DNA of 49,223 nucleotides, taken from assembly GCA_051000335.1 (NCBI GenBank), contig JBPCOK010000107.1, positions 1 to 49,223 on the forward strand, in the 5' to 3' direction. This document shows positions 4,827 through 19,737 of this stretch, piece after piece. The notes under the pieces were generated by a model. The model worked only from the letters and a program-made list of their open reading frames with translations, made no database searches and was not told where the DNA came from. The first letter of the stretch is position 1. Each line of letters begins with the position of its first letter. This DNA comes from Candidatus Limnocylindria bacterium (lineage in GTDB: Bacteria; Chloroflexota; Limnocylindria; QHBO01). The position numbers and the translations under genes were made by a program.

Positions 4827-5468
4827 TCAGCTCGTTCGGCCGCGAGCCTCGAGCACCACGACCTGGGTCTCGTCCGGCAGCGAGTTCGGGGTGAACTGTG
4901 CCTTCGGCTGCCGGATCGGCTCAGTAGCCATCTCATGGAGAAAGCGCTCGGGCCCGCCGAGATCCTTCGACGCCCCGTCGACGCCGAAATGCATGGGGAT
5001 CACGATCTTCGGGCCGATCTGGGACACCACCTCCGCGGCCTCGGATGGCGTCAGCGTCGTCTCGCCACCGACGGGCACCAGCAGGACGTCGACCGGGCCG
5101 AGCTCGCTGACCTGCTCATCGGTCAGGAGGTGGCCGAGGTCGCCCAGGTGGCAGACGTGAACGCCATCGATCTCGACGGCGAAGATCATGTTCTCGCCCC
5201 GTGCTGCACCGGCCTCGCCGTCGTGATAGGTCCGCACGCCGGTCACGAGGAGCTCGCTGAACTCGTACTCGCCGGGTCGGGTCAGGGTCAGGCCGGCCTT
5301 GATCGATCGGGTGTAGGTGTGGTCCGGGTGATCGTGGCTGATCGTCAGCAGCTCGACGTCGTGCTTGCCTGCCACGAAGCCGGTGGAGGGAGGGCAGGGG
5401 TCGGTGATGACGGTGGCGTCCTTCCCCTTAAGGCGGAAGCAGGCACGTCCGTACCAGGTGATTTCCAT
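4827..5468 (-). CDS. Metal-dependent hydrolase, MBL fold (UPF0173 family)
   Basis: MEITWYGRACFRLKGKDATVITDP.., TISHDHPDH and HLGDLGH motifs are present. The true start is ATG 5468; the 415-aa track ORF (to 6074) is an upstream extension that runs over the divergent neighbour. Confidence 0.85.
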   Translation of the reverse strand: MEITWYGRACFRLKGKDATVITDPCPPSTGFVAGKHDVELLTISHDHPDHTYTRSIKAGLTLTRPGEYEFSELLVTGVRTYHDGEAGAARGENMIFAVEIDGVHVCHLGDLGHLLTDEQVSELGPVDVLLVPVGGETTLTPSEAAEVVSQIGPKIVIPMHFGVDGASKDLGGPERFLHEMATEPIRQPKAQFTPNSLPDETQVVVLEARGRTS

Positions 5469-5637
5469 CGGTGCGCCGATGGTAACGGATCGGGAGATAG
5501 CACGAGCCCCGGTGCCCGCCCAATGACACCGGGGCTCGAAGGAGGGAGGGTGGAGGTAGAAATCCTTGGATCTCCAACTCGCACGATGAACACTACGAGG
5601 CACATCTAAATCGGGGGCTTGCCCAACCTTAAGAAAC

Positions 5638-6999
5638 GTGAACGTTGGCGGTGTGAGCGGCATGCGTAGAATGGCGCGGATGTCCAAGACTCCCGGATCC
5701 CTGGCCGCGGCCACGGTGGCCGTACTCGTCGTGATCGCGGTTGCCGTGCTCGCGCTTCGCGCCGGAGGAGCGGGCATCGCCCAGGGTCCGCTCGCCAGCG
5801 TCACTCCATCCTCGTCGCCCGCGGCATCAGCCGCGCCGACACCCACGGAGTCGGACGCCGACCCGTCACCGTCCCAGCTTGACGAGACGGAGACGCTCGC
5901 CATCCTGGCCGAGATCGAGCACCAGGTCATTGCCATCCGCGGCCTGCCCGCGGCGGAGATCGGCCCCGCGCAGATCATCAGTCGCGACGAGCTCGGCGCG
6001 GAGCTCCAGGCCATCTTCGACGAGGAGTACCCGCCGGAGGAGCGGGAACGCGACAATCGCGCGCTCCGCGCCATGGGTCTCTTGGGCCCGGACGACGACG
6101 TCGCCGAGCTGTCGCTCGAGCTGCTGGGCGACCAGGTGCTCGGCTTCTACGACGATGTCGAGCAGAGGATGGTCGTCGTCTCGGACGCCGGGCTCAACGT
6201 CGAGGCCCGGATCACCTACGCGCACGAGTACACACACGCCCTGCAGGACGCCGCCTTCGGCCTTGATTCGCTGGAGACCGATGCAGCGGGCCAGGATGAC
6301 CGCGGGCTGGCACGGACCGCTCTGATCGAGGGGGACGCCACTGTCACGATGCTGGCCTGGATGCTCCAGAACCTGAGCCAGCAGGAGATCCTCGAGTACG
6401 TCGCGGGCGCCGAGATTCCGGATACCACCGGCATCCCGTCGTGGATGGTCGCCCAGCTCGCGTTTCCGTACGAGTCCGGACTGACGTGGACCACCAGCCT
6501 GGCGGGCGGGGATCCGACCCAGCCGGAGTTCGGCGAGATCGATGCGGCGTACGACGACCCGCCCGACAGCACGGAGCAGGTGATCGACATCGACAAGTGG
6601 GAGCCCCGTGAGGCGCCGGACCCGATCGGGACGACGGACCTGGCCGCTGCTCTCGGCGATGGATGGGAGGAGGTCGAATCGACCCCGATCGGCCAGGCGA
6701 CGATCGAGATCATGCTGAGCTACTTCGGTGCGTCAGCGACCGATGCCCGCGAGGCGGCCGCCGGATGGGGTGGCGACCGCGCGGTGATCGCGAGCGGACC
6801 CGATGACGGGTTCGCCATGGCATGGCGGCTCTCCTGGGACTCGGCCTCGGACGCCGACGAATTCGTCGCTGCCTACGAGTCGGTGATCGGGACGCTCGAT
6901 TTCCCCGCGCAGGTCGTCCAGCTCGATGGCGGTGACGTGCTGGTCGCCCACGCGTCGTCCGGCGAGCTGCTGGCGCAGACGGTGGACGCCGCGAGCTGA
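5638..6999 (+). CDS. Membrane-anchored or secreted putative zinc metalloprotease (HExxH)
   Basis: It has an N-terminal hydrophobic anchor (SLAAATVAVLVVIAVAVLAL) and then a Ser/Pro/Ala linker. YAHEYTHALQD carries HExxH, followed by LIEGDATV. Several start codons are possible between 5638 and 5680. Confidence 0.6.
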   Translation: MNVGGVSGMRRMARMSKTPGSLAAATVAVLVVIAVAVLALRAGGAGIAQGPLASVTPSSSPAASAAPTPTESDADPSPSQLDETETLAILAEIEHQVIAIRGLPAAEIGPAQIISRDELGAELQAIFDEEYPPEERERDNRALRAMGLLGPDDDVAELSLELLGDQVLGFYDDVEQRMVVVSDAGLNVEARITYAHEYTHALQDAAFGLDSLETDAAGQDDRGLARTALIEGDATVTMLAWMLQNLSQQEILEYVAGAEIPDTTGIPSWMVAQLAFPYESGLTWTTSLAGGDPTQPEFGEIDAAYDDPPDSTEQVIDIDKWEPREAPDPIGTTDLAAALGDGWEEVESTPIGQATIEIMLSYFGASATDAREAAAGWGGDRAVIASGPDDGFAMAWRLSWDSASDADEFVAAYESVIGTLDFPAQVVQLDGGDVLVAHASSGELLAQTVDAAS

Positions 7000-8965: not shown

Positions 8966-9880
8966 CTAGCGATCCCGGGCCAGCCGCAGCTCCAGCGCCT
9001 GGCCCGCGCTGAAGTCCATGAGGCCGAGCGCATCGGCGGCAACATCGAGCAGGGCTCCCGCCGGCGCAAGTCCGATGAGCTCGCAATGATCGATCTGCGT
9101 GCCGGCGTCACCCGCCAGGCGGCGCACCTCCCGCACGACCGCGGCGATGCCGGTGCGCTGCCAGTCGACGAGGTTGGTGCTGACCTGGGCCATTCTCGGC
9201 TGGCCGGGGTTCTCGAGCAGGACTCCCATTGCCTGCACGGCCGGCATCCCGCCCGAGCTCTCGCGAATCGCGTTGGCGATCTTGATGGCGAGGCCCAGGT
9301 CGTCGGAGCGCAGGTTGATGTTGAAGGCGATGAGCGGCTTCCGCGCGCCGACGGCCACCGCCCCGCCCCGCGGGTGAACCCGGGATGGCCCGAAGTCGGG
9401 TGCCCGATTGGGCCGGTCTCCGATCTCGTCGCGGATCGCCTCGTACTGGCCGCGACGAACCTCCGCGAGACGCCGCCGTTCGGGACGCAGGGCCGCGTCA
9501 CCGTACAGGTAGACCGGCAGGTCGAATCGACCGGCAATTTGCTCGCCGAACCGTCGGGCGAGGTCGACACACTCCTCGATGCGGGTCGTGCCGAGCGGAA
9601 CGAACGGGATGACATCCACCGCCCCGATGCGCGGATGGGCGCCGGTGTGCTGCTCCATGTCGATGAGCTCCAGCGCGCGGCCCACGGCGGCCGTCGCGGC
9701 GCGCACGACCGGCTCGGCGCTCCCGGCGAACGTGACGACGCTCCGGTTGTGCGTCTCGTCGCGCGTGTGGTCGAGCACGGTCACGCCCTCGATCGACCCG
9801 ACGGCGCGGACGATCTCGTCGACGACCTCTGCCCGCCGGCCCTCGCTGAAGTTCGGTACACACTCGATCAATCCGCGCAC
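8966..9880 (-). CDS. Glutamate formimidoyltransferase (FtcD N-terminal-type)
   Basis: It has the hallmark N-terminus LIECVPNFSEGRR. I place the start at GTG 9880; the 372-aa track ORF extends over the divergent rsmI start, which is implausible. Confidence 0.85.
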   Translation of the reverse strand: MRGLIECVPNFSEGRRAEVVDEIVRAVGSIEGVTVLDHTRDETHNRSVVTFAGSAEPVVRAATAAVGRALELIDMEQHTGAHPRIGAVDVIPFVPLGTTRIEECVDLARRFGEQIAGRFDLPVYLYGDAALRPERRRLAEVRRGQYEAIRDEIGDRPNRAPDFGPSRVHPRGGAVAVGARKPLIAFNINLRSDDLGLAIKIANAIRESSGGMPAVQAMGVLLENPGQPRMAQVSTNLVDWQRTGIAAVVREVRRLAGDAGTQIDHCELIGLAPAGALLDVAADALGLMDFSAGQALELRLARDR

Positions 9881-9935
9881 GCCCCAGATCGTAGCGGGGC
9901 CGGTCCCGCGGTGACGGGCTGGTAGGCTCGGCCTG

Positions 9936-10790
9936 ATGACGGCATCGAGAGCCCAGGGCCCGACCGGACGCCTGTACCTGGTGGCCCTACCGATCGGCAA
10001 CCCGGACGACATGACGCCTCGCGCCGTGGCAATCCTCGGTGCGGTGGCACTCGTGGCGGCCGAGGACACCCGCCACTTCGCCACGCTCGCGCGGCGTCAC
10101 GGCATTCGAGCCCGAGCCGTGAGCTACCACGATCACAACGAAGACCGGAGGTCGCGGGAGCTGCTTGCGCGGCTCGAGGCCGGGGACGATGTCGCCTTGG
10201 TTTCCGATGCCGGCACGCCGCTCGTCAGCGATCCGGGATACCGGCTGGTGCAGGCCGCGATCCGTGCGGGGATCGATGTCACGAGCCTGCCCGGGGCGTC
10301 GGCGGTCACGACGGCGCTCGCGGCGTCGGGGCTGCCGCCTCACCCGTTCCGGTTCGTGGGATTCCTGCCTCGCAGCCGGGCGGCACGGCGCACGGCCCTT
10401 GCGGCGCTGGTGGCGGATGACGCCACGCTGGTCGCCTTCGAGGCGCCGCGCCGAATCGTGGCCACCCTGGTCGATGTCCGGGAGGTGCTCGGCGATCGGC
10501 TTGCCTGCGTGGCCCGTTCGCTCACCAAGGAAGGCGAGCGGTACCAGCGAGGGCCGGTGTCGCGGCTGATCGATGAGCTGCGTGCCGAGGACGAGGTGCG
10601 CGGCGAGTGCACCCTGCTGGTGGCCGGCGCCGACGCGACCACTGGATCGATGGCCGATGCCGAGGACGATGCCACGCTCTTGTTGGCCTGTGGCGCTCCC
10701 GCGCGAGCCGTGCAGGACCTGCTGGTGCAGCGCCACGGTCTGCCGCGGCGCGAAGCGTATGCCCTGGTGCTCAGGCTGCGGGACCGATGA
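9936..10790 (+). CDS. rsmI: 16S rRNA (cytidine1402-2'-O)-methyltransferase
   Basis: LYLVALPIGNPDDMTPRAVAILGAVALVAAEDTRHFATL.. is present, along with a tetrapyrrole-methylase-fold signature (SDAGTPLVSDPGYRLV). Confidence 0.9.
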   Translation: MTASRAQGPTGRLYLVALPIGNPDDMTPRAVAILGAVALVAAEDTRHFATLARRHGIRARAVSYHDHNEDRRSRELLARLEAGDDVALVSDAGTPLVSDPGYRLVQAAIRAGIDVTSLPGASAVTTALAASGLPPHPFRFVGFLPRSRAARRTALAALVADDATLVAFEAPRRIVATLVDVREVLGDRLACVARSLTKEGERYQRGPVSRLIDELRAEDEVRGECTLLVAGADATTGSMADAEDDATLLLACGAPARAVQDLLVQRHGLPRREAYALVLRLRDR

Positions 10791-11581
10791 CCTCGGAGAT
10801 CGTGGAGCGCGTGCTTCGCTCGTCCAGATACCGCGACGTCGATCCCGCCCTGCTGGGTCGGCTGGCCGAGGAGGAGCTGGCCCGAGCACGGAACGTCGAC
10901 GACGCGGTCAAGCGCGTGAAGCGCCGCCTGCACCAGGCGGTCGGCGCATTCCGCGGCTCGCGCCGAGCGAGCCGACTCGCCGACGCCTGGAACGGCGACC
11001 TGGAGGATCCGGTGTTCCGGGACGCCTGCATCGAAGCCATGCGCGGCCATGCGTCGACTCGCGAGCGGCTGAACGCGATCGACGCGCTCTACCCGGCGAT
11101 CTGGTCCGTCACCGGCACGCCGGGGTCCGTCCTGGATCTCGGGTGCGGGCTGAACCCGCTGACGCTCCCCTGGATGGGAATCTCGCCCGTTGCGCGGTAC
11201 ACCGCCTCGGACGTCGACCGCCGTCCGCTGAGCACGGTCACCGCATTCCTCGAGCTCGTCGGCCAGGCGCATCGCATCGAGGTGCGCGATCTCGTCAGCG
11301 ATCCACCCGAGGAGCGCGCCGACGTTGCCCTCCTCCTCAAGCTCGTCACGACCCTCGACCGCCAGGACCCCGGCGCCGCCGCCCGGCTCATCGACGCGCT
11401 CGACGTTCGGCATGTGGTCCTCTCCTTTCCGCTGCGGTCGCTCGGCGGCGGAAAGCGGGGCATGGGTCGAACCTACCGAGCGCGACTGGATCGCCTGCTG
11501 GAGGCATCGGTACGGGCTCGAACGCTGACCGAGGTCCCGGTCCCCGATGAGCTGGTCGCCGTGGTGGGGCTCGATGGCTGA
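10787..11581 (+). CDS. 16S rRNA methyltransferase of the FmrO/Kgm/Sgm/Rmt/ArmA family (m7G1405-type, aminoglycoside-resistance class)
   Basis: - The start ATG 10787 overlaps the rsmI stop (ATGA).
- The N-terminus (VERVLRSSRYRDVDPALLGRLAEEELARARNVDDAVKRVKRRLHQAVGAF) closely parallels the Sgm/KgmB N-terminus as I recall it.
- It has a SAM motif (VLDLGCGLNPL).
- It has SFPLRSLGGGKRGM, compared with the family motif SFPT.SLGGRSKGM. Confidence 0.8.
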   Translation: MTSEIVERVLRSSRYRDVDPALLGRLAEEELARARNVDDAVKRVKRRLHQAVGAFRGSRRASRLADAWNGDLEDPVFRDACIEAMRGHASTRERLNAIDALYPAIWSVTGTPGSVLDLGCGLNPLTLPWMGISPVARYTASDVDRRPLSTVTAFLELVGQAHRIEVRDLVSDPPEERADVALLLKLVTTLDRQDPGAAARLIDALDVRHVVLSFPLRSLGGGKRGMGRTYRARLDRLLEASVRARTLTEVPVPDELVAVVGLDG

Positions 11582-12659
11582 GCCGATCACCACCGGTCGC
11601 GGCAGCCTTGCCGTTCCGACCTTCCTCCCGGACGCGACCCGCGCCGGCGTGCGCGGCGTGAGCAGCGAGGATCTGCGCGCGGTCGGGATCGAAGGCGTGG
11701 TCGTGAACGCATTTCACCTCCTCCGGCGCCCAGGAGCGCGCGTGGTCCAGGCCGCCGGCGGCATCCATCGGTTCATGGATTGGTCGGGTCCGATCCTGTC
11801 CGACTCGGGCGGATTCCAGGTCTGGAGCCTCATCCGGCAGGATCCCAATCGCGGCGTCATCCGCGACAACGAGGTGATCTTTCGCGAGCCGTCCACCGGG
11901 GAGAAGTGGAATCTGACCCCCGAGCGCGTGATCGGGGTGCAGTTCCAGCTTGGCTCCGACATCGTGGTGTGCCTGGACGACTGCACCGATGCCGAAGGTC
12001 CGGAGGCCGAGCAGGAGCGATCGGTCGAGCGGACCCTCCGCTGGGCACGTCGCAGCCGCGAGGAGTTCGACCGGCGGGTTGCCGAACGCCGGGCCGACGT
12101 GCCACCGCGGATCTTCGCGGTCGTCCAGGGTGGAGGGTCGGAGCGGCTGCGTCGCCAGTGCGCGACCGAGCTGGCGTCCATCGGCTTCGACGGGTACGGA
12201 TTCGGGGGATGGCCGCTGGACGCCGAGAGCGCCCTCCTGGCCGATCCGCTGCGCTGGGTCGCCGAATCATTGCCGGCCGATGCTCCGAAGCACGCGTTGG
12301 GCATCGGCCGACCCGATCACGTGGTCAGCGCCGCAGCCCTCGGCTATTCGATCTTCGACTGCGCGCTCCCCACGCGCGATGCTCGACACGGCCGGCTCTA
12401 TGCCTTCCGATCAGGGTGGCAGGACCGCCGGCCGTCGCCGGGAGACCATTTCTACCGCGCGATTCGCATCCACGACGCCGAGCACCGGGTTGCCCATGGA
12501 CCGATCGAGGACGGCTGTGACTGTCCGCTGTGCGCGCGCCACTCCGCCGCGTACCTCCACCACCTCTTCAAGGTCGGCGACCTCTCGGCCGAGCGGCTGG
12601 CCACGCTCCACAACCTTCGGTTCTACGTCAGGCTGTTCGAGCTGCTGCGAGCCGGCTAG
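11574..12659 (+). CDS. tRNA-guanine transglycosylase (TGT) family base-exchange enzyme, divergent
   Basis: - It aligns along its whole length to bacterial TGT: GPILSDSGGFQVWSL, LGSDIVVCLDDC, LRWARRSREEFD, IFDCALPTRDARHG.
- The zinc site CDCPLC..HHL..LHNL is present.
- The start is ATG 11574, an 8-nt overlap with the upstream gene; an alternative is 11547.
- The GGLAVGE pocket motif is replaced by GGWPLDA. Confidence 0.85.
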   Translation: MAEPITTGRGSLAVPTFLPDATRAGVRGVSSEDLRAVGIEGVVVNAFHLLRRPGARVVQAAGGIHRFMDWSGPILSDSGGFQVWSLIRQDPNRGVIRDNEVIFREPSTGEKWNLTPERVIGVQFQLGSDIVVCLDDCTDAEGPEAEQERSVERTLRWARRSREEFDRRVAERRADVPPRIFAVVQGGGSERLRRQCATELASIGFDGYGFGGWPLDAESALLADPLRWVAESLPADAPKHALGIGRPDHVVSAAALGYSIFDCALPTRDARHGRLYAFRSGWQDRRPSPGDHFYRAIRIHDAEHRVAHGPIEDGCDCPLCARHSAAYLHHLFKVGDLSAERLATLHNLRFYVRLFELLRAG

Positions 12660-13756
12660 GCATGCGCGGCAGCCTGCGCCGGATCCTCGCGCCCGAGGGT
12701 ATCGGGATTGACATTGCGGGCGCGTGCCATGCGCTCGGTGAGCAGCTGGAGCGAGATCGCGGCGCCGAGCAGCGCCGGGGCGGGGCCCGGGATGCGTCCG
12801 GCGCGGGGCGGGACCACGCGGCCGGCCGGCGTGAGGTCATCGTCGAGGCTTCGCGAGACCTCGGCCGAAAGGATGGCCGCCGCCGGAACCGAGAGCGACG
12901 CCGCCGCGGCCAGCAGGCGTTCGGCGCGCTGACGGACCTCGGGTATCGGCGCGGCGTCGGCGACGATGAGGATGAGCCCGGTCCAGCGGGTGGCTGCGGC
13001 GAGGTGGCCGTGGTGCAGGGTCTCGAGCTGGTAGGCGGAGGCCGGCAGATGGGCGCCCTCCGCGATCTTGAGTGCGAGCTCGCGCGCCGAGACATGGTCC
13101 GGCCCGGCGCCGGCGACCATGATTCGGTCGCATCCGGCGAGCGCCGAGGCAACCGTGGCGGCCGTATGGGGATCGATCGCGCCATCGAGCAGGGATCGGA
13201 TCCCGATGACGTCGGGCTTGCGGTCGGCCAGCCGCGCGCCTGCCGCGATGCCGACGAGGATGGGTGACAGGTAGCCGACGGTATGGCACCAGCTCTGGTC
13301 CTGCTCGTCGGTCGTGATGACGATGCGGGCCGTCTCCGCCCCCGGTGACCCGGCTCCGACGGTGATGAGGGCGGTCGCCACCCCGGCCCTCGAGGCCGCG
13401 TGCAGTGCCGCATTCGTCATCGCCGTCCCGCCCTCGTGAGAGACGCCGATGAGCAGGCCGCTGTCGGGCGGGCGGGGTAACAGCTCCAGCGCCTGGACGG
13501 CCCGTACCTCGCGACCCGAAGGCAATCCGAGGCCCTCGGTCAGCAGCTCCGCGACGGCCATCGCCGCGTGCTCCGACGTGCCGCAGCCCGTCACCATGAT
13601 CGGCTGGTGGGCGGCCACGGCTGTGCGGATGGCGTCGACGAGATCGGCGAGCGCGGGATCGGATGCGAGGCGGTGAAGCAGGCGTTCGGCGAGCGCGGGC
13701 TCGGCCGCGATCATCTCGCTCATCACGTACGGCGCGCGTCCACGGAACGCCGGCAT
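12656..13756 (-). CDS. Tandem SIS-domain sugar-phosphate isomerase/aminotransferase-like protein (GlmS C-terminal-like, no glutaminase domain)
   Basis: GCGTSEHAAMAVAELL and SHEGGTAMT motifs are present, plus a second SIS repeat (VAGAGPDHVSARELALKI). I place the start at ATG 13756, because the track start at 13900 would overlap the end of hutU by 77 nt. The N-terminus YVMSEMIAAEP resembles the M..EI.EQP start of GlmS isomerase domains. Confidence 0.7.
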   Translation of the reverse strand: MPAFRGRAPYVMSEMIAAEPALAERLLHRLASDPALADLVDAIRTAVAAHQPIMVTGCGTSEHAAMAVAELLTEGLGLPSGREVRAVQALELLPRPPDSGLLIGVSHEGGTAMTNAALHAASRAGVATALITVGAGSPGAETARIVITTDEQDQSWCHTVGYLSPILVGIAAGARLADRKPDVIGIRSLLDGAIDPHTAATVASALAGCDRIMVAGAGPDHVSARELALKIAEGAHLPASAYQLETLHHGHLAAATRWTGLILIVADAAPIPEVRQRAERLLAAAASLSVPAAAILSAEVSRSLDDDLTPAGRVVPPRAGRIPGPAPALLGAAISLQLLTERMARARNVNPDTLGREDPAQAAAHA

Positions 13757-13823
13757 CTCGGACGGGGCCCACGGATCGGGAGGTCCGGGCAGCGGCTCGT
13801 TCGCCGCACGTTGTGCCAACGCG

Positions 13824-15506
13824 TCAGCGATCGTCGGATCGCATGGGGATCCGGACCCCGCGCTCGTCAGCGACCTCGAGCGCCCGCTCGTAGCCGGCAT
13901 CGGCGTGGCGGATGACGCCCATGCCGGGATCGCTGGTCAGGACCCGCTCGAGCCGAGCCGCCGCCTCGGGGGTGCCATCGGCGACGACGACCATGCCGGC
14001 ATGGAGCGAGTAGCCGATGCCGACGCCACCGCCGTGATGGAAGCTGACCCAGGTGGCCCCGGCGGCCGTGTTCACCAGTGCGTTGAGGATCGGCCAGTCG
14101 GCGATGGCGTCGGACCCGTCGCGCATGGCCTCGGTCTCACGGTGCGGTGACGCTACCGAGCCGGCGTCGAGGTGGTCACGGCCGATGACGATCGGGGCAC
14201 TCACCTCGCCCGACGCCACGAGGTCGTTGATGGCGGCGCCGGCGCGTGCGCGTTCGCCGTAGCCAAGCCAGCAGATACGCGCCGGAAGGCCCTGGATCGG
14301 GACCTTCTCGGCGGCCAGCCGCAGCCAGCGCTGGAGCCCCTCGTCGTCGGGGAAGAGGCCGGCGAGCGCCTGGTCGATGCGCGCGATGTCCTCGGCGTCG
14401 CCGGAGAGCGCCGCGACCCGGAACGGGCCGCGGCCCTCGCAGAAGAGCGGACGGATGAAGGCGGGGACGAACCCGGGGAAGTCGAACGCATTCTCGACGC
14501 CGCCCTCACGAGCGACCTGGCGGATGTTGTTGCCGTAGTCGAAGGTGACGGCGCCTGCGGCCTGGAATGCCAGCATGGCCCGCACGTGCTCCGCCATCGA
14601 TGCGGTGCTACGTCGGATGTACTCGTCAGGATTGGCTTCCCGAATGGCGGGCGCATCGGCCGGTGAGATGCCGATCGGGACGTAGCCGCCGAGCGGGTCG
14701 TGGGCGCTCGTCTGGTCCGTGACGAGATCCGGGCGCCAGTCTCGACGCACCAGCTCCGGCAGAACCTCGGCGGCATTCCCGACAAGCGCCACGGATCGGC
14801 TCCGGCGATCGGAGCGCCAGGATTCGACCATGGCGAGGGCTGCGTCCAGGTAATAGACCACGTCGTCCACGTACCCCGCGGCGAGCCGTCGGCGGGCCCG
14901 GGATTCATCGACTTCGACGACGAGGGCCACCCCTTCGTTCATGGTCACGGCCAGCGGCTGCGCGCCACCCATGCCGCCGAGCCCGGCCGTCAGCGTCACC
15001 GTTCCCGCGAGGCTACCGCCGAAGTGCTGGCGCGCCGCCTCGGCGAAGGTCTCGTAGGTTCCCTGAATGATTCCCTGGGTTGCGATGTAGATCCACGACC
15101 CTGCCGTCATCTGGCCGTACATCGTCAGTCCGGCGCGCTCCAGCTCCCGGAACTTCTCCCAGGTTGCCCAATGCGGCACCAGGTTCGCGTTTGCGATGAG
15201 AACCCGCGGCGAGTCAGGCGTGGTGCGGAAGACGCCTACCGGCTTGCCGGACGCCACCAGGAGCGTCTCGTCGTTCTCCAGGCGTCGAAGCTCGGCGACG
15301 ATGGCATCGAACGCGTCCCAGCTGCGCGCGGCGCGGCCCGTGCCGCCGTAGACGATGAGGTGGTCCGGATCCTCGGCCACATCGGGGTCGAGATTATTCA
15401 TCAGCATCCGCAGCGCGGCTTCCTGCTGCCACCCCTTGCAGGTCAGTTCCCTGCCGCGAGGGGCGCGAACGGTGCGGGGACCGCTTCGCGGTCCGACGGC
15501 TGTCAT
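13824..15506 (-). CDS. hutU: Urocanate hydratase
   Basis: [38 protein letters not shown] and [12 protein letters not shown] are present. The start is ATG 15506, giving 560 aa; the 642-aa track ORF is an N-terminal extension. Confidence 0.95.
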
Positions 15507-19484: not shown

Positions 19485-19504
19485 CGGCGTTCGAACGAAT
19501 CCAT

Positions 19505-19661
19505 CGTCTTCGGGGCGGGGTGAAACTCCCCACCGGCGGTCGGCTCATGATCTGGGCCAGCCCGCGAACCGCATCGGCAACGCGCCGACGCGGCTGACCT
19601 GACCCCCGGCACCCGCCGGGGCAGACAGGGCCGACGGTCATAGTCCGGATGGGAGAAGACG
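19505..19661 (+). promoter_or_regulatory. FMN riboswitch (RFN element) aptamer
   Basis: - P1 is formed by CGTCTTC..GAAGACG.
- Conserved cores are present: GGGGCGGGGTGAAACTCCCCACCGGCGGT, AGCCCGCGAACC and GCCGACGGTCATAGTCCGGATGGGAGAAGACG.
- These match the RFN consensus as known from the Bacillus ribD leader. Confidence 0.9.
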
Positions 19662-19737
19662 ACCGCGCGACTCGCCGTGTCCCGGCGAGGAGCGATGGCG
19701 TGGTCCCGTGCGCGATGGCGAACCGCACGGGAGCGCC

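Follow-up and report, generated by a model that had tools for sequence, protein, structure and literature searches.

A tRNA-guanine transglycosylase paralog with a rewritten specificity pocket accompanies FmrO/Rmt-type 16S rRNA methyltransferases

Introduction

In the portion cited here, a 2016 review of the tRNA-guanine transglycosylase (TGT) family describes only bTGT, ArcTGT, QTRT1/2 and DpdA (PMC5699537). In the canonical bacterial enzyme (Tgt), D280 is the nucleophile (PMC4425180, PMC3660597) and D102 the general acid/base (PMC4425180); canonical positions follow Zymomonas mobilis TGT throughout. The peptide between L231 and A232 flips with the base that is bound: with guanine, its NH points toward the base, which is held by the NH of A232, and with preQ1 its carbonyl points toward the aminomethyl group, E235 driving the flip and holding the side of the peptide that faces away (PMC3660597). 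L231 and A232 are specificity determinants, and ArcTGT has a valine at both positions for preQ0 (PMC5699537). We report here on a TGT paralog encoded in a 49,223-nucleotide (nt) stretch of DNA, called the window below (contig JBPCOK010000107.1 of assembly GCA_051000335.1), from a Candidatus Limnocylindria genome of the Chloroflexota that is 76% complete. We name it TGT2, a label of our own for the subfamily carrying GGWP[LI]D, and not that of a curated family.

The genes found beside TGT2 are relatives of 16S rRNA methyltransferase genes. RsmH and RsmI make m4Cm1402 in 16S rRNA late in the maturation of the 30S subunit, and Grm, KgmB and ArmA-type enzymes methylate N7 of G1405 (m7G1405) on the same subunit (PMC13602947). 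The TGT2 gene follows genes of the RsmI and FmrO/Rmt families, and its relatives keep this company across phyla. From the context of the gene and the make-up of its pocket we propose, with moderate confidence, that TGT2 acts together with an m7G1405 methyltransferase and exchanges a guanine base within the decoding site of 16S rRNA. In the literature searched on FmrO/Rmt together with transglycosylase, 7-deazaguanine, G1405 or helix 44, nothing was found on the pairing of these enzymes with TGT2 or on its function.

Results

An intact catalytic core with a rewritten pocket

The TGT2 gene of the window and its diagnostic segments are the following.

11574..12659, + strand: TGT2, TGT paralog of 361 amino acids (aa); ATG at 11574, stop at 12657-12659
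11628..11639, + strand: PDAT motif, with the subfamily-specific change of V45 to Asp and, nearby, of K52 to Arg
11799..11819, + strand: SDSGGFQ, whose D77 aligns with D102, the general acid/base (role from PMC4425180)
11973..11987, + strand: LDDCT, whose D135 aligns with D156 (guanine recognition) and C137 with C158
12204..12224, + strand: GGWPLDA in place of GGLAVGE (L231W, A232P, V233L, G234D, E235A)
12354..12377, + strand: FDCALPTR, containing D262 (equivalent to the nucleophile D280) and R268 (R286), with R271 (R289) just after
12408..12452, + strand: 15-residue insertion in a beta-hairpin, seen as alignment gaps in Z. mobilis and E. coli TGT
12516..12611, + strand: zinc site, CDCPLC (C315, C317, C320) and H346

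The start codon is backed by the closest database relatives, which are 359-366 aa long and cover 99-100% of TGT2; they come from soil-type metagenomes and, where named, from 'Candidatus Limnocylindria' or Chloroflexota. The Pfam TGT profile matches with 320.8 bits over positions 8-337 of 357, against 485 bits for the canonical Tgt of the same genome, and the NCBIfam model TIGR00430 (Tgt) gives 313.4 bits, which narrowly clears its cut-off of 306.75. Identity to the solved bacterial TGTs is 35-36%. An AlphaFold2 model built from 17 subfamily sequences (predicted local distance difference test 95.1, predicted TM-score 0.92) was compared with Z. mobilis TGT using Foldseek, as the preliminary description of this DNA had advised; the TM-score of 0.85-0.89 goes with a TIM barrel and a zinc subdomain. 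The C-terminus, thought in that description to lack roughly 20 residues, is indeed about 24 residues short of Z. mobilis TGT and about 28 short of the E. coli chain in the HMMER alignment, and 20 short of the canonical Tgt of its own genome. The hairpin insertion, placed in the model with strands 274-278 and 294-298, is kept throughout the subfamily. With PDAT, GGWP[LI]D, this insertion and the short C-terminus, the window protein carries all the signs of the TGT2 subfamily. Two other assignments were tried and rejected: the DpdA model gives 28.3 bits for a cut-off of 200, and no dpd-like neighbours were seen; the ArcTGT (TgtA) model gives 91.2 bits for a cut-off of 350, and TGT2 ends at the zinc subdomain, without the C1-C3/PUA domains.

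The pocket was mapped by aligning TGT2 with HMMER to the TGTs of Z. mobilis and E. coli; no gaps occur in this region. Besides the residues listed above, F81 corresponds to Y106, Q185 to Q203 and G211/G212 to G229/G230, and the four zinc-site residues to the zinc ligands of Z. mobilis TGT. Past the two glycines the correspondence to the canonical segment breaks down, W213, P214, L215, D216 and A217 standing for L231, A232, V233, G234 and E235. The replacement of GGLAVGE by GGWPLDA, first proposed from a manual alignment, is therefore genuine, and it recurs across a distinct clade (see below). The catalytic, guanine-face and zinc residues are all kept. Two of the motif labels in the same description were wrong. 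SDSGGFQ, taken for the nucleophile region, holds the general acid/base, the nucleophile being in FDCALPTR; and the Asp of GIGRPDH, given as the second Asp region, is non-catalytic and not conserved in the subfamily, where G243, G245 and P247 are the sole invariant residues of that segment.

Conservation was compared between 36 TGT2 sequences of the core clade defined below and 68 canonical Tgt sequences. In both sets D102, S103, Q107, D156, Q203, G229, G230, D280, T285, R286 and R289 are conserved in at least 94%, and H333 is also common to both. Within the TGT2 subfamily, catalytic and base-binding residues, including D280, D102, D156, Q203 and G230, reach 97-100%; a reading of TGT2 as a pseudo-enzyme was rejected on these figures. 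Fixed differences from the canonical sequences are V45D, K52R, I201V, L231W, G234D, L259A and M260L: position 45 is Asp in 97% of TGT2 and Val in 82% of the canonical sequences, and position 52 Arg in 100% against Lys in 85%. The Trp at 231 is conserved in 94% and the Asp at 234 in 86% of the core-clade sequences, no exception to P214 occurs among the 17 aligned subfamily members, and the final residue of GGWPLDA varies. E235 (100%), R257 and D277 are conserved in the canonical sequences only.

Because a proline at 232 has no amide NH and E235 is lost, the published guanine/preQ1 switch cannot operate as described in TGT2. Judged from these substitutions, only the carbonyl-exposed, preQ1-type state would be retained, and next to it the pocket has gained a Trp and, at 234, an Asp. 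Such a pocket would favour a base that, at position 7, donates a hydrogen bond or carries a positive charge. The ammonium of preQ1 and the cationic imidazolium of N7-methylguanine (m7G) are candidates; the N7 lone pair of guanine and the preQ0 nitrile would fit less well. By its residues, TGT2 is predicted to be competent in catalysis, and it belongs to a TGT subfamily of its own, with the signature PDAT ... GGWP[LI]D.

A true paralog in a clade of its own

The window genome has two TGT genes. The second, on another contig, is a canonical tgt with GGLSVGE, which adjoins a queA fragment and is 39% identical to TGT2. TGT2 is a true paralog, as the preliminary description had it, and not the tgt of the queuosine pathway. 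The search for queuosine genes that it recommended returned this queA beside the canonical tgt, and QueC and QueF were not found in the 76%-complete genome.

A tree was made with FastTree, whose support values are weaker, from the 150 best representatives of 50%-identity clusters, which gave 140 usable rows; GG[WYF]P is present in 47 of these. A set of 52 rows (support 96) stands apart from the canonical enzymes. Inside it, a core of 37 rows (support 98), all with GGWP, contains the TGT2 of the window and every FmrO-linked locus. These FmrO-linked loci belong to Chloroflexota, Clostridia, Latescibacterota and Armatimonadota, with one from an alphaproteobacterial metagenome-assembled genome. 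Outside the core are a gammaproteobacterial GGWP clade and the GGY[AM]V variants of WWE3 and Bdellovibrionota. Profile scores in a sample of Chloroflexota genomes (described below) are bimodal, with 471-543 bits for TGT2 and at most 340 bits for canonical sequences.

Other TGT clades with their own version of the segment were noticed along the way. One has GGET[IV]G[YF] or GGESVGF (P0166, P0214, P0238, P0265); another, with GGR[HP][IV]D, is sister to TGT2 (P0131, P0135, P0193); a third combines DSGGFQMIR or DSGGFQI[IV]R with GGL[CS][IL]GE (P0197, P0208, P0215-P0217, P0224, P0249, P0253, P0258).

TGT2 is encoded with enzymes of the decoding site

In the window, TGT2 is the last gene of a three-gene operon, bordered on both sides by genes of the opposite strand.

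9936..10790, + strand: rsmI, 16S rRNA C1402 2'-O-methyltransferase, first gene of the operon (TIGR00096, 218 bits for a cut-off of 167.9; Pfam TP_methylase)
10787..11581, + strand: FmrO/Rmt-family methyltransferase of 264 aa, ATG at 10787 (PF07091, 191 bits, positions 1-253 of 255)
12656-13900, - strand: SIS-domain (GlmS C-terminal-like) gene, converging on TGT2, with stop codons overlapping by 4 nt
8966-10084, - strand: formiminotransferase gene, diverging, upstream of rsmI

The TGA stop of rsmI overlaps the ATG of the FmrO gene (ATGA, 4 nt), and the ATG of TGT2 overlaps the FmrO stop by 8 nt (ATGGCTGA). With these overlaps the three genes are, by prediction, translationally coupled. Among the sequencing runs listed for the window, eight DNA runs contain all or part of it, and none is an RNA run. 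Both methyltransferase genes are the only matches to RsmI and FmrO in the window genome. The FmrO-like protein scores 215.6 bits with NF000466, the general Rmt model, under its cut-off of 250. Among solved structures it is closest to Sgm (3lcu; E 3e-42, residues 19-278 of 281), it also aligns to RmtC and RmtB, and it keeps the HASTRER motif and the LDLxCGLNP motif for S-adenosylmethionine. It is a homologue of the 16S rRNA G1405 N7-methyltransferases, with a predicted m7G1405 activity. The two bordering genes did not recur near TGT2 elsewhere in the loci annotated with Pfam.

Eighty loci from named genome records were then retrieved using the alignment of 17 subfamily members. FmrO lies directly beside TGT2 in 19 of the 22 core-clade loci, eight of which carry two tandem FmrO paralogs; in the other three it is elsewhere in the genome, in two pieces for the genome of locus L026. 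No FmrO or RsmI match was seen at 53 canonical tgt loci (L028, L031-L082), and no FmrO in 14 control genomes. Gene order is also conserved. Two Clostridia loci (L012, L016) have RsmH-TGT2-FmrO-RsmI, the cluster of L016 coming after ybeY-cdd-era-recO. All eight tandem loci read [RsmI-like]-TGT2-FmrO-A-FmrO-B-RsmF-like, according to the Pfam annotation of 15 loci and seed searches. Of 33 further TGT2 regions, 31 also hold FmrO and 22 an RsmI-family gene; the latter occurs in 8/8 of the Bacillota regions.

Co-occurrence was scored in two samples of genomes. The first held 201 Chloroflexota genomes at least 85% complete, one of them unpublished (G042), plus that of the window at 76%. FmrO was found in 45 genomes and TGT2 in 43, and every one of these 43 also has FmrO, at less than 400 bp in 38, on the same contig at 1.3 and 6.4 kb in two, and on different contigs in three. 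A canonical Tgt match is present as well in 40 of the 43. The two remaining FmrO genomes have decayed copies only: in G132 the two genes, FmrO and TGT2, lie next to each other as fragments broken by stop codons (G132:C209:412-1781), and G189 has FmrO in two pieces with TGT2 not found (G189:C37:14859-15409). Both look like a joint loss of the pair. In the second sample, 401 genomes of Bacillota, the phylum of L016, FmrO above cut-off and TGT2 occur in the same nine genomes, always adjacent, and neither was found in the other 392. Because related genomes do not count as independent cases, the association has less statistical weight than these numbers suggest. It nevertheless recurs across at least 25 genera of Chloroflexota and again in a second phylum.

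Fusions join the same partners. Six proteins with GGWP are TGT2-FmrO fusions (P0129, P0271, P0272, P0274, P0275, P0276), one is RsmI-TGT2 (P0140) and one RsmH-TGT2 (P0273), the last with a full-length RsmH match of 340 bits. In G042, TGT2 and FmrO share one open frame of 770 aa, an observation made in that genome alone. Taken together, gene order, co-occurrence and fusions show TGT2 to be inherited, and by prediction transcribed and sometimes translated, as a unit with enzymes that act on the 1402-1407 stretch of helix 44.

Several further arrangements were recorded. In six tandem-FmrO clusters (L011, L014, L017, L020, L094, L104), a short RsmI-like paralog (97-128 bits to the window RsmI) stands directly upstream of TGT2, and a second, better-scoring RsmI (119-194 bits) a few kb off; such clusters may therefore have a 2'-O-methyltransferase of their own. 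One Chloroflexota genome has a 387-aa open reading frame without Pfam match between TGT2 and FmrO (L091:7207-8370). A phosphoesterase gene recurs beside TGT2-FmrO in two unrelated folds, a PHP domain in Chloroflexota (L004:4312-5388, L007:7904-8617) and a calcineurin-like one on a Providencia plasmid (L119:6131-6940; see below). Of two GGWP-type TGT genes from Gammaproteobacteria, one is flanked by the gene of a large serine recombinase and by a MiaB/RimO-like radical-SAM gene (L024:3028-8032), and the other follows a 419-aa protein with a weak PD-(D/E)XK match (L025:4742-7080). P0277 joins a GGWP-type TGT to DUF5680. Canonical-type TGTs have fusions as well, one to QueA (P0278, 1038 aa) and eight to PF05430 (Methyltransf_30; P0279-P0286).

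TGT2 on resistance plasmids

The TGT2 protein was searched by tblastn against 72,556 plasmids. Twelve records carry TGT2-type genes at 45-49% identity; the other matches, at 38% or less, look like ordinary tgt. Four of the twelve records were inspected. Plasmid pKP13f has rsmH-tgt-rmtG, followed by 98 aa of a TP_methylase (RsmI) that an IS91-family element truncates, so that the rmtG segment keeps the four-gene order of the Clostridia operons. On pEc09 (L120, Enterobacter) tgt-rmtG is present twice in tandem, at 5001-6879 and 9013-10891. On plasmid 2964TF the tgt gene is directly upstream of rmtD2, and on p12100-NDM (Providencia) it is one gene upstream of rmtB2, separated from it by a calcineurin-like phosphoesterase. 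Translation of three of the plasmid tgt genes gave frames free of internal stops, with GGWPL[DG], PDAT, FDC and CxCxxC. The segments are of the IS91/ISCR type or bounded by IS26, in pathogens. Because intact plasmid TGT2 genes adjoin rmtG and rmtD2 and lie near rmtB2, the partners of TGT2 include enzymes of established m7G1405 activity.

A possible supply of a 7-deazaguanine base

If TGT2 inserts a 7-deazaguanine, its hosts need a source of it. QueC was not found in 11 of 14 TGT2-clade genomes, that is, 10 of 13 from the core clade and the WWE3 genome G003, whose variant lies outside it. The only match in the window genome is a partial one of 21.8 bits, to the PP-loop motif. No QueC was found in two other members of its genus (genomes 96% complete), in two of the same family, in G073 (99% complete, from another Chloroflexota family) or in five further TGT2 genomes, and it is present in three others. 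In the five genomes where QueF was also searched, it follows the pattern of QueC. Since QueC is missing, these genomes would need to salvage 7-deazaguanines. A possible route is YhhQ/COG1738 (PF02592), an importer family for preQ0/preQ1 with experimental support (PMC5372724). Its gene is downstream of the cluster and on the same strand in six of the eight tandem-FmrO loci and in two further regions, and in G073 it follows the TGT2 cluster at a distance of about 4 kb. A link from TGT2 to salvaged 7-deazaguanines through YhhQ is thus limited to one subclade. An Rfam scan of 11 TGT2 loci detected no preQ1 or other riboswitch near the gene. The sole Rfam match in the window is an unrelated FMN riboswitch at 19502-19664 on the + strand (82 bits, gathering score 66.2).

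Discussion

A proposed role at the 16S rRNA decoding site

The preliminary description had predicted that TGT2 inserts a different base, acts on a different nucleic acid, or both. The switch residues are indeed removed, and the association with FmrO/Rmt, RsmI and RsmH, through operons, fusions and strict co-occurrence, suggests a different target, the decoding site of 16S rRNA; base and target are both deduced rather than seen. In our proposal, TGT2 would work as one unit with the m7G1405-type FmrO/Rmt enzyme and the C1402 methyltransferases RsmI and RsmH, on a guanine of the 30S subunit that is G1405 itself or a near neighbour, at the top of helix 44. The incoming base would be a salvaged 7-deazaguanine of the preQ1 type, because the pocket keeps the carbonyl-exposed state and gains an Asp, and because YhhQ belongs to the cluster of one subclade. 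The methyltransferase would act first and TGT2 second. This order is suggested by the fact that Rmt enzymes work alone in the clinic, whereas core-clade TGT2 was never without FmrO (43/43 Chloroflexota genomes, 9/9 Bacillota genomes, 3/3 of the core-clade loci where the two genes are apart), and also because the pocket suits a cationic, 7-substituted base in both half-reactions.

A more specific form of this scheme, which we put forward tentatively and consider unlikely as it stands, is that methylation primes the exchange: FmrO/Rmt would make m7G1405, and TGT2 would swap the m7G, cationic and a good leaving group, for a salvaged preQ1-type base. The methyltransferase would then select the site and the transglycosylase rewrite it, and the new Trp and Asp beside Pro232 would suit a cationic m7G. 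The reverse order, in which FmrO methylates a base inserted by TGT2, was rated lower, as the partners RmtG, RmtD2 and RmtB2 are known G1405 N7-methyltransferases that work without TGT2.

Several points weigh against an action at the decoding site. G1405 lies in a helix, in a C-G-U context. Canonical Tgt requires a U-G-U loop (PMC4425180). In the parts cited here, a 2026 compendium does not list 7-deazaguanine among the modifications of rRNA, and it has Rmt enzymes alone giving m7G1405, so that TGT2 is not needed for that mark (PMC13602947). The linkage to YhhQ is confined to one subclade; neither QueC nor YhhQ was found in the family of the window, nor QueF in the window genome, the only member of the family searched for it. 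The TGT2-like genes of Gammaproteobacteria and of the WWE3 genome are without FmrO. Finally, TGT2 clears the equivalog cut-off of the Tgt model and keeps residues common to tRNA enzymes (R286, R289, T285, H333 and the zinc subdomain).

These last two points leave room for a tRNA substrate. TGT2 could act on tRNA, at position 34 or another, with a different base or set of tRNAs, and be co-inherited with the methyltransferases because wobble chemistry and a ribosome carrying m7G1405 and m4Cm1402 are tuned together. We regard this, the main alternative, as rather improbable. It would account for the full TGT architecture, with the basic residues of the tRNA enzymes, and for a TGT2-like gene being the only TGT of the WWE3 genome, and YhhQ is otherwise a gene of queuosine salvage (PMC5372724). 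On the other hand, position 34 is already served in the 40 of 43 Chloroflexota TGT2 genomes that have a canonical Tgt match, and neither queA nor any other que or tRNA-modification gene stands beside TGT2 in the 15 loci scanned with Pfam. The fusion partners RsmH, RsmI and FmrO, moreover, act on the 30S subunit (PMC13602947).

A second alternative keeps the decoding site as the target and makes TGT2 an eraser or repair enzyme, exchanging the chemically labile m7G1405 back to guanine with no 7-deazaguanine involved. The pocket does lose the NH that reads an unmethylated N7, and it gains a Trp and an Asp. Both residues are typical of m7G recognition. The lack of QueC and YhhQ matches in the family of the window, and of a QueF match in its genome, would also be accounted for. 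Yet a writer and an eraser encoded in one coupled operon, even in one polypeptide, would run a futile cycle, and TGT2 is intact beside rmtG, rmtD2 and rmtB2 in clinical isolates, where selection presumably favoured rmt resistance. We find this very unlikely.

Less credible still is a non-catalytic partner, similar to eukaryotic QTRT2, that would aid substrate binding by the methyltransferase: fusion and obligate pairing with enzymes would fit, but catalytic and base-binding residues are almost invariant in TGT2, and QTRT2 itself has lost the nucleophile Asp (PMC4425180). An action on DNA is the least probable of all, because, despite the precedent of a second tgt copy retargeted to DNA (PMC5699537), the DpdA model falls far below its cut-off, the DNA-guanine transglycosylase 7ui4 matches at E 6e-4 only, and no dpd-type or DNA-metabolism genes recur in TGT2 neighbourhoods.

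Should TGT2 act on 16S rRNA as we propose, base exchange, so far a matter of tRNA and DNA, would extend to the ribosomal decoding site, where aminoglycosides bind. If exchange is moreover primed by methylation, rRNA would gain its first known 7-deazapurine, made by a new two-enzyme logic, and the clinical rmt resistance genes would be the mobilised first half of a pathway. The genes rmtG, rmtD and rmtB, which confer pan-aminoglycoside resistance, are still accompanied by TGT2 on plasmids, and the function of TGT2 bears on their origin and native product. In any case, TGT2 proteins pass the NCBI cut-off for Tgt and bear the name 'tRNA guanosine(34) transglycosylase' in databases; that name is probably wrong for the subfamily, which has thousands of database members.

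Comparison with known systems

With the bacterial Tgt enzymes of known structure (Z. mobilis, E. coli, Thermotoga maritima), TGT2 shares the fold, D102, D156, Q203, G230, D280, R286, R289 and the zinc ligands. It differs from them by W-P...A in place of L231/A232/E235, by G234D, V45D, K52R and M260L, by the hairpin insertion and by the short C-terminus. It also forms a separate clade that coexists with true Tgt, and is linked to rRNA methyltransferase genes instead of queA.

DpdA, invoked in the preliminary description as a precedent for retargeting of the fold, remains valid as such: there too, gene clustering gave the first prediction of the new substrate for a second copy of tgt (PMC5699537). 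Kinship is another matter: DpdA sits on a separate branch of the family (28 bits, cut-off 200), with a different pocket and different neighbours. ArcTGT/TgtA resembles TGT2 in having an altered specificity segment, V197/V198 standing for L231/A232, and a different target position (PMC5699537). The two differ in that the core region alone aligns (91 bits against a cut-off of 350), TGT2 being without the PUA-type C-terminal domains.

The plasmid 'Tgt' genes upstream of rmtG, rmtD2 and rmtB2 in Klebsiella, Enterobacter and Providencia belong to the same subfamily as the window gene, at 45-49% identity. Their gene order is that of the environmental operons, with rsmH upstream and an RsmI fragment downstream on pKP13f. 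They are mobilised in pathogens, whereas the TGT2 of the window is chromosomal, in a soil- or sediment-type Chloroflexota genome. Annotated as ordinary Tgt, they were the subject of no functional study in the literature searched. Papers on the environment of rmtD and rmtG reportedly mention an adjacent 'putative tRNA ribosyltransferase'.

As for the partner enzyme, the FmrO-like protein of the window is close to the m7G1405 methyltransferases Sgm, RmtB, RmtC and ArmA, aligning over its full length to Sgm and also to RmtC and RmtB. It stands apart from the Rmt/Arm resistance enzymes in scoring below the Rmt cut-off (215.6 against 250 bits), in being chromosomal, and in being always paired with TGT2 in the two phyla sampled.

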